Under the pieces are notes generated by a model. That model had not been told where the DNA came from and made no database searches. It worked only from the letters and a program-made list of their open reading frames with translations. 35,330 nucleotides of DNA, taken from assembly GCA_910592345.1 (NCBI GenBank), contig CAJVPI010000324.1, positions 1 through 35,330 on the forward strand. Reading direction: 5' to 3'. This stretch comes from Paraglomus brasilianum. Lineage: Eukaryota. A program made the translations under genes and the position numbers. Positions within the stretch are counted from its first letter, which is position 1, and the number at the start of each line of letters is the position of its first letter. Below, one piece after another: positions 32,472-33,990 of this stretch.

Positions 32472-33990
32472 TTATTTTAGTATACTTGTAGGCTTTGGGC
32501 AAGTAATGTCTTTGAATTTATCTCTAAAGATTTAATTTCTTTGGTAATTTCGGAAACACTTGCTTTTCTGGTTTTTGATGAGTAAAAGAACCATCAGCAA
32601 CTAGCTGAGCTTTGACAACTCCAGGATTAGTTGTTTCAAAAAGAAAATGTTGATATTTTTGCAACCCACTCAATTTCTTAAAGAAAATTCCCAACACAGA
32701 GTTAAGATCCAAGTATGGAAAGCCTTTTCCATTGTCATAACACTGAGCTTTATTTAATCCAGCTGTACTCGATTTTTTCACAACTTCAACAATATGATCC
32801 ACACAATCTACTGTTGTTTTTCGATAAAGCTTTTTAATCAGTCCGAAACTACCATCACACTTGAATTTAGTATGTCCAGGTACCATGAAATTGAGCTCAA
32901 CACTTTCATAATAACCGCAAATTGCTAAATATAGGTAAAATCAAATGGTAACATTATTTTTATTCTGACCACCGGCATTATCACAAGTAATTTTTAAATA
33001 CTTTTCACCTTTATTCAGTCTCTTAATTCCATCGAAAACCATACTCCGTGTACCATTAGGGCTTTTGCCGATAATTTCGTCTTCATCGAGAACGTAATTA
33101 ATTTGTTCGCGTACTGCTTCATCTTGAATACCAAATAAATGCACTTTACGTGGAGTGAGATAATAAATTTCACTTACCTGTTGATCGGAATGGGGTACGT
33201 GAACGTTTTGTGTTCAATCATAACTATAATGAGCAGTCGCGTCAACAATACTACAATAATCAGTTTTATTTCTTGTTATAAAATGCTCATCTACCAATTT
33301 TCTTTGTTCATCTGCTAATTTGGTATTTTTGTGATAATAGTTTCTCTCTAACTTAGCTTTACCTAGATGTTCTTTGAATTTTTTCAGTAAATCTTTGGCT
33401 TCTTCCTTACTGTAAAATGTTGACACGGCTCATGATTTGAATATAAGGCGTTAATTGGTATCATAACTTGCGGAACGCGTCATATTTTAACCATTTCAAC
33501 GCGCTATCGTTTTCGAGACCTGCGATAAAATTGCGATAGACCGATTTATAACTCGTTTCGGCTGGCAAAAGTGTAAGCGATTGAGTAATTCGATTTACAT
33601 TTATACCAGGACTTGGTAATCCATGAATTTCGGCATAATTCTCGAGAAAATTTTTCACGGCAGTAGCAACAGTTATATCAATGGTTATTTTGGTTTTCCA
33701 TCGCGGCACCCGTTTGATGTTACCGTGAATGCGCGGTATTATACCATTCGTTGCTAGGTAATTTCTGACGTTTTCGAAGTGAGTGCGACCAATTCCCAAC
33801 ATATTGAGATACGTTTTCTGACAAAGTGGCGTATTGCGATCTCAGTAGTAAAGCGTTTGCTTATTAGTACGTGTTTTCTTTTTAAGACGTCGGCTGGCAG
33901 TTATTTCTCCACTATTCATTGCTTTTAGTTGAGCCATTACACATATATCTTGTTCAGATCTAGAGAGAGCTTGAAATGCTTCACGTAAGA
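32472..33990 (-). mobile_element. Sola-like DDD transposase read with TGA=Trp (code 4); 5'-truncated with small deletions
   Basis: The four ORF-track pieces are one gene. 33426->32524 is a single frame broken only by TGA at 33214 and 32941; ~33988->33430 is broken only by TGA at 33842 and 33461. Motifs: HYSYD[W]TQNVHVPH, CDNAGGQNKN, FMVPGHTKFKCDGSFGLIKK, C-terminal DITCPKP before TAA at 32472-32474. Confidence 0.8.

Follow-up and report, generated by a model that had tools for sequence, protein, structure and literature searches.

A decayed Sola1-like transposon with TGA-encoded tryptophan in nuclear DNA of Paraglomus brasilianum, and its probable traffic between fungus and endobacteria

The Paraglomus brasilianum window (the whole stretch of DNA analysed, 35,330 nt of contig CAJVPI010000324.1) holds a decayed nuclear copy of a Sola1-like element. 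The family of this element carries host genes; it is probably expressed in Mollicutes-related endobacteria (MRE), inserts repeatedly into host nuclei and occasionally returns. The window is intron-rich fungal nuclear DNA; it includes an ERV/ERGIC gene as separate exon-sized ORFs and a tyrosine-kinase-like gene. The family combines two genetic codes in one unit and has precise ends in fungal DNA, and therefore expression in MRE, delivery to the nucleus, capture of cargo and return are favoured. A sequence-only reading of this DNA had proposed a round trip from host to endobacterium and back. The position of the copy in intron-rich fungal DNA supports such a trip, although the traffic seems to have happened repeatedly and not just once. 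As a fossil, the window copy nevertheless reveals a family with striking two-code architecture.

Transposase copy in the window

The transposase copy is a dead pseudogene. At its 5′ end about 104 nt are gone, and with them the start and the CxCxC motif, and little of the 3′ end remains; frameshifting deletions of 22 nt and 25 nt are located near 33428/33414, and a 10-nt deletion near 32582. Identity to relatives reaches 91%, and the predicted fold of this type of transposase is RNase H/integrase-like, a weak match with a best E of 0.007.

Four in-frame TGA codons interrupt the minus-strand frame, at 33844-33842 (context YY*DRN), 33463-33461 (RKL*YQL), 33216-33214 (SYD*TQN) and 32943-32941 (VTI*FYL). 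Through the alignment, we found that all four positions are conserved Trp in homologs, as the sequence-only reading had suspected from the contexts. Two TGG codons (33700-33698 and 33493-33491) had also been counted as Trp; one of them is a conserved Trp, but the other is a private Leu-to-Trp change.

Transitions were present at 14 of 119 CpG sites vs 43 of 418 other C/G sites, so there is no excess of CpG decay, and the CpG o/e of the gene is 1.21. The earlier claims that the TGA codons do not come from CpG deamination and that the CpGs are kept therefore stand. Four random nonsense changes had been considered improbable, and the TGA set is indeed not due to chance, because intact relatives carry TGA at the same sites. 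Random nonsense or CpG decay as the source of TGA is ruled out by the lack of CpG-decay excess together with purifying selection on the intact TGA-bearing ORFs.

Table 1. Features of the element and insertions in the window
Feature	Position	Strand	Evidence
Right terminal inverted repeat (TIR)	31039..31538	+	79-97% matches to relatives' right ends and inverted left ends
Intact 85-aa ORF within TIR arm	31277..31534	+	counterparts of 64-88% identity in 10 relatives
Frameshifted code-4 cargo gene, HAD-like	31560..32453	-	motif; 5 TGA in main frame
Broken Sola1-like DDD transposase (DUF7869), four TGA-Trp codons	32472..33988	-	PF25273, E 2e-15
MITE-like insert with 29-bp inverted ends, presumed left arm	34170..34522	.	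arms 93% complementary
Possible 3′ remnant of Crinkler-type nuclease gene, where relatives carry one	34649..34975	-	motif resemblance
Fragment of a standard-code DDE_3 transposase, Tc1/mariner type, that overlaps the putative Crinkler remnant	34885..35328	-	PF13358, E 4e-10

Other parts of the element in the window

The precise end of the element is kept intact at 31043-31538. The terminal GGGG of the right TIR starts at 31043, immediately 3′ of ATAT, and the repeat has a core of about 45 bp and extends to about 500 bp; shuffling gave 0 matches in 100 shuffles. The 85-aa ORF in the TIR arm is a feature of the window's subclade. It contains no Trp codon and is therefore readable in both codes, and its C-terminus is the basic motif PRKKRK, which appears NLS-like. 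The predicted model of this protein is ferredoxin-like (pLDDT 72); the fold search gave weak matches of Cas2/VapD type, all with E>=0.12, and the Atlas search gave unnamed clusters under 0.9 only.

The HAD-like cargo gene, downstream of the transposase, contains TGA-Trp codons and frameshifts. It has no Pfam match and its label rests on motifs, and the homolog search with the window's cargo ORF returned one unnamed match among 335 candidates. The sequence-only reading had suggested this gene as possible cargo. The linkage does recur, with HAD-like homologs after the transposase in loci L024 and L072 and in the Geosiphon gene models P0073, P0095 and P0119, but the notable cargo is the upstream fungal gene. 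Further upstream in the window, the stretch at 34649-34975 resembles a Crinkler-type nuclease gene in a motif; profile and sequence comparison gave no significant match, and a Crinkler identity is unsupported. The left end of the window element would lie beyond the window edge.

The terminal motif occurs once more, in isolation, at 27251-27291 (plus strand, 85% over 41 nt). As this copy and the end at 31043 point the same way, the two are not partners, and the lone copy is probably an older remnant. The insertion flank is formed by a decayed region that is SEL1-repeat-like (labelled by eye) and depleted of CpG; at 29925-30699 it contains a stretch of about 435 nt duplicated in tandem. A 170-nt inverted repeat (95%) at 19867-20609, upstream of the ERV gene, is probably a MITE.

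Code-4 translation in soil-metagenome relatives

Of 529 candidate stretches in the metagenome scan, 426 were confirmed, and the best 80 of the 426 loci were examined. Among these 80, 25 of the 32 complete genes (both ends present) are single uninterrupted code-4 ORFs, each holding two to four TGA, and none of the 25 is TGA-free. At five Trp columns, at least 25 TGA/TGG switches were counted in 26 sequences, a number which recombination may inflate. The code-4 translation of the transposase is under strong purifying selection, with a median dN/dS of 0.092 and a maximum of 0.14 (54 of 66 pairs estimable); pN/pS is higher in the closest pairs, 0.54 at pS<0.05, partly owing to frameshifted copies. 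The uninterrupted ORFs, the selection and the TGA/TGG switching together bear out the earlier proposal that TGG was recoded to TGA in code 4. With no TGA-free gene among the 25, the closest copies are not standard-code elements with TGG only and without an endobacterial homolog, which was the finding that would have spoken against it.

Database fragments often start after or stop before the TGA-Trp sites, and gene models of Ambispora, Diversispora and Geosiphon have gaps spanning these sites, as expected if the TGA codons are skipped in gene prediction. The scans revealed no suppressor tRNA in the window or in the 40 of 80 loci scanned, and no Rfam match in nine sources; an element-encoded suppressor tRNA or structured RNA was ruled out on these grounds. 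One subclade (L032, L040, L046, L048 and related loci) is strongly CpG-depleted in all modules, with o/e of 0-0.3, yet its code-4 ORFs are intact; methylation in the nucleus or in the bacterium might account for the depletion.

Phylogeny and family identity

In the full-length search, a protein from a Ca. Moeniiplasma glomeromycotorum MAG (P0211), on a contig of 124,773 bp, was 52% identical, and standard-code proteins of Rhizophagus and Glomus were mostly 26-44% identical. In the tree of 24 rows, clade A is the window's clade and clade B the clade with the Moeniiplasma protein. Both clades form one group in both trees (support 99; 99/96), sister to the standard-code nuclear elements of Rhizophagus, and trees placing either clade A or clade B with the Rhizophagus clade were rejected (p-AU 0.018 and 0.007, for groups that were named after the first tree had been seen). 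The outgroup is composed of GTDB loci that look eukaryotic by our reading, and because the code-4 clade is sister to the fungal clade and not nested in it, the direction of transfer rests on this outgroup. The simplest reading of the trees would be a eukaryotic origin, probably of Glomeromycotina type, with one entry into code 4. The phylogeny of the code-4 translation, which the sequence-only reading had suggested as a check, thus places the family beside fungal nuclear elements with eukaryote-type outgroups, and the suspected endobacterial link is supported by the Moeniiplasma homolog in the sister clade.

Among named MRE contigs, none was found to carry a member of clade A; the protein from Moeniiplasma is of the sister clade. 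The homolog searches gave no named MRE homolog of the cargo proteins. Bacterial core genes were absent from every locus examined, including the clade-A contigs. The clade-A clusters P0008 and P0009 comprise 37 proteins, most of the listed ones on JGI contigs of 37-236 kb and several of 454 aa, and look like a high-copy expansion in one assembly.

A native bacterial IS family, the other origin considered earlier, found no counterpart: NCBIfam gave no meaningful match to the transposase, GTDB contained 15 loci at 24-37%, and no transposase match was present in plasmids, phages or IMG/VR. A viral, phage or plasmid vehicle was ruled out by the lack of matches in those databases. Two GTDB scans gave no mollicute match, and a single-protein GTDB scan gave nothing. 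Thirteen of the 15 GTDB loci came from one 'Stappiaceae' MAG (L082-L090, L092-L095); they encode Sola transposases that look eukaryotic and end in a zinc knuckle at the C-terminus, and host contamination of this genome is likely.

By eye, the Sola1 HMM consensus matches the transposase at HMM positions 5-30 and 108-124 of 124, where the HMM reads sfDlqkvlslP ... IelkflepgHsk and the sequence compared with it SYDWAQNVHVP ... IELNFMVPGHTK. These motifs suggest a Sola1-like transposase and, together with the DUF7869 match, agree with the Sola-like DDD enzyme first recognised in the window. Sola2 was ruled out, since its motifs DFAENY ... SDG ... HFFATSHGK, as given in part 1 of supplement S10 of PMC3627910, do not match.

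Two genetic codes in one unit

In relatives, the unit opens with a TIR and a Crinkler-like fungal gene in standard code, often with introns; the transposase in code 4 follows, then cargo rich in TGA, and a second TIR closes the unit. These units were pieced together from the overlapping contigs L026, L009 and L003, no contig containing both ends; one terminal motif flanks the unit on either side in opposite orientations and qualifies as a TIR, and in L026 and L009 the left TIR precedes the upstream gene. Downstream of the transposase, 207 TGA vs 48 TGG were counted in 45 tightly packed ORFs, a few of which are perhaps spurious. Upstream of it, 22 ORFs contained 12 TGA vs 98 TGG, and by our reading these 12 sit in introns, terminal stops or shadow frames.

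Upstream homology between relatives ends 15-45 nt before the start codon of the transposase. Upstream sequence of 500 nt or more was present in 39 loci (from the best 80 of 426 loci), and in these we found 24 distinct types of upstream junction; in 19 of the 24, a co-oriented standard-code gene ends 125-853 nt before the transposase, and the remaining five comprise one tandem transposase, two junctions with opposite-strand genes and two unclear cases. A complete GT-AG intron was recognised by eye in seven of eleven inspected upstream genes. Pfam detected a kinase in seven of the 19 co-oriented genes, a weak NTPase in two and DUF6826 in one, the others being judged by eye; with kinase or P-loop NTPase where Pfam matches, the upstream genes appear Crinkler-like.

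The Diversispora eburnea gene model P0256 starts in the TIR ORF and joins it with cargo and transposase, and seven more fusion models of this kind were present in Geosiphon, Ambispora and Funneliformis assemblies. As these assemblies come from cultured fungi, the junction is not limited to metagenome assemblies. Transposase alleles are mosaic between copies sharing the same upstream gene, and some contigs of relatives may be assembly chimeras. The pair L009/L026 was dropped as proof of selection after capture, the differences being clustered in one 400-nt block. Neither compartment alone could express the entire element.

At L003:6328-7493 and L009:5087-6347, a right and a left TIR lie back to back with the same 316-nt spacer, as tandem elements or a circle junction. 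Upstream of the element in L067:33-2650 and L072:53-2831 (minus strand) are standard-code ORFs about 70% identical to each other, with a dN/dS of 0.22; they have no Pfam match, and we take them to be Fanzor/TnpB-like by a GTDPG motif.

Insertion sites and flanks

Among 16 distinct flanks, the TIR end was preceded by ATAT in 13, ATTT in two and ACTT in one; no target-site duplication was seen among these single ends. Such precise ends in fungal DNA argue that the element transposed and was not taken up at random. In many cases the contig breaks off no more than about 100 nt from the right TIR, as expected of a multicopy element with varied flanks. No bacterial gene was found in 13 right flanks: one is a kinase pseudogene of fungal type that contains no CpG and shares 44% identity with the kinase in the window, one resembles a Tc1 tail (by eye, no Pfam match), one is the promoter of another element, and the rest are short or featureless, most outer flanks being under 400 nt and uninformative. 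The copies and gene models of Geosiphon are located on nine scaffolds of 70 kb-1.19 Mb each, about 4.9 Mb in total, which exceeds its MRE population of about 721 kb (PMC13315312). Some elements are inserted into other copies (L053:2297, L013:6857-7348, L015:2922), including at ATAT just 5′ of the transposase gene.

Proposed cycle and rival explanations

In the cycle we propose, an ancestral Sola1 of Glomeromycotina type would have entered MRE once and been recoded there, and MRE ribosomes would make the transposase. Element DNA would then reach the nucleus and integrate by transposition, perhaps aided by the small NLS-bearing TIR protein. Crinkler-type genes would be captured or swapped in the nucleus, the sole place of their expression; some composites would go back to MRE, where the transposase could act again, and copies left in the nucleus, such as the window copy, would decay. 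More tentatively, and with somewhat less than even confidence, we might speculate that the transposon depends obligately on two compartments: only the endobacterium can translate its transposase, and only the fungus can splice and translate its Crinkler-type cargo. Such an element would cycle as a vehicle of two-way gene transfer and spread effector genes between fungal lineages through host switching of MRE.

The traffic might instead run in one direction, the element multiplying only in MRE and passively capturing host DNA, with nuclear copies that are dead on arrival and never return. Host-to-MRE gene transfer including kinases has been described (PMC10507103), neither the window copy nor the fungal gene models are intact, and mosaic alleles indicate recombination, as reported for MRE (PMC4916391). 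We nevertheless consider this rather unlikely, since the captured genes retain introns, intact frames and TGG-only Trp, and all 17 Trp positions shared within six upstream pairs are TGG/TGG, although dS is 0.7-1.3 in four of these pairs. The captured genes are also of a single effector-like type, not a random sample of host DNA, and GC3 and CpG of the transposase roughly follow the fungal, not the bacterial, cargo, a weak signal from three subclades.

Code 4 is also, by table definition, the code of mould mitochondria, and the reader of the TGA codons could be fungal mitochondria, a mitochondrial plasmid or cytosolic UGA read-through, with the element a fungal resident. All informative flanks are of fungal type and the loci examined showed no bacterial core gene, which such a reader would explain; it is improbable, however, given the Moeniiplasma protein in the sister clade, cargo ORFs with operon-like packing and as many as 12 TGA per ORF, more than leaky read-through could cope with, and the negative suppressor tRNA and Rfam scans reported above. 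We give very little credence to ordinary decay of a nuclear transposon by random nonsense, or to a chimeric assembly of MRE and fungal DNA. The window copy is a pseudogene and MRE contamination is stated to be common in Mucoromycota assemblies (PMC11423566), but TGA stands at these sites also in ORFs that are intact and under purifying selection, the window junction lies exactly at the TIR end after ATAT, and the MITE and Tc1 insertions and the deletions are consistent with long nuclear residence.

Significance and comparison with known systems

The TGA-Trp family accounts for mis-annotated fungal gene models in which predicted introns skip TGA-Trp codons. A shuttle between MRE and nucleus, if true, would be a natural DNA route into the nucleus of fungi that are hard to transform. 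In this family, a eukaryotic DNA transposon has adopted a bacterial code, and one element combines two genetic codes.

The target-site duplication of Sola1 DNA transposons is an AT-rich 4-bp sequence (AWWT). The group was reportedly described by Bao et al. in 2009. The present element shares with Sola1 the DDD motifs, TIRs and AT-rich 4-bp sites, and its nearest standard-code relatives are Rhizophagus elements; it differs in being code 4 and intronless, and in carrying bacterial-style cargo and a fungal standard-code gene in one unit. A Sola1 HMM and a fungal survey, with Sola1 reported in Rhizophagus, are given in PMC5751038. In the Sola2-Fanzor1 chimeric elements (PMC3627910), likewise, the transposase part is constant while the cargo varies, and the sites are 4-bp AWWT (also the target-site duplication of Sola2), but the Sola2 motifs DFAENY and HFFATSHGK are unmatched here, and Sola2-Fanzor1 stays within a single compartment and a single code.

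The two commonest architectures of Crinkler (CR) effectors end in a kinase or a P-loop NTPase, and the part of the review covered ties CRNs to Helitrons and mentions no tie to Sola or endobacteria (PMC5289972). The upstream genes of the relatives have the same C-termini where Pfam matches; the CR class is defined by a kinase or NTPase coupled to a restriction-type nuclease, behind a header domain, and a nuclease in the relatives is putative. Agrobacterium T-DNA combines bacterially expressed machinery, eukaryote-expressed cargo and NLS-bearing helpers, and the present element may be analogous in all three; here, in difference, we see a DDD transposase with TIRs, host-derived cargo and no secretion system.

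Within its coverage, which left out subscription papers, the literature search gave no Sola element in MRE and no two-code element, and the term 'DUF7869' gave 0 matches. MRE genomes have been annotated with the Mycoplasma code (PMC10507103), and MRE-Glomeromycotina gene transfer was reported by Sun et al. 2019, as cited in PMC8227670. In the covered parts of this literature (PMC8227670; PMC10507103; PMC4916391), DNA flows in both directions and MRE are rich in transposases and host-derived kinases, in line with the cycle proposed here; the transfers there concern single genes and no vehicle is named, whereas the element family described here, with a eukaryote-derived transposase and TIRs, is a concrete candidate vehicle that can be tested by PCR.
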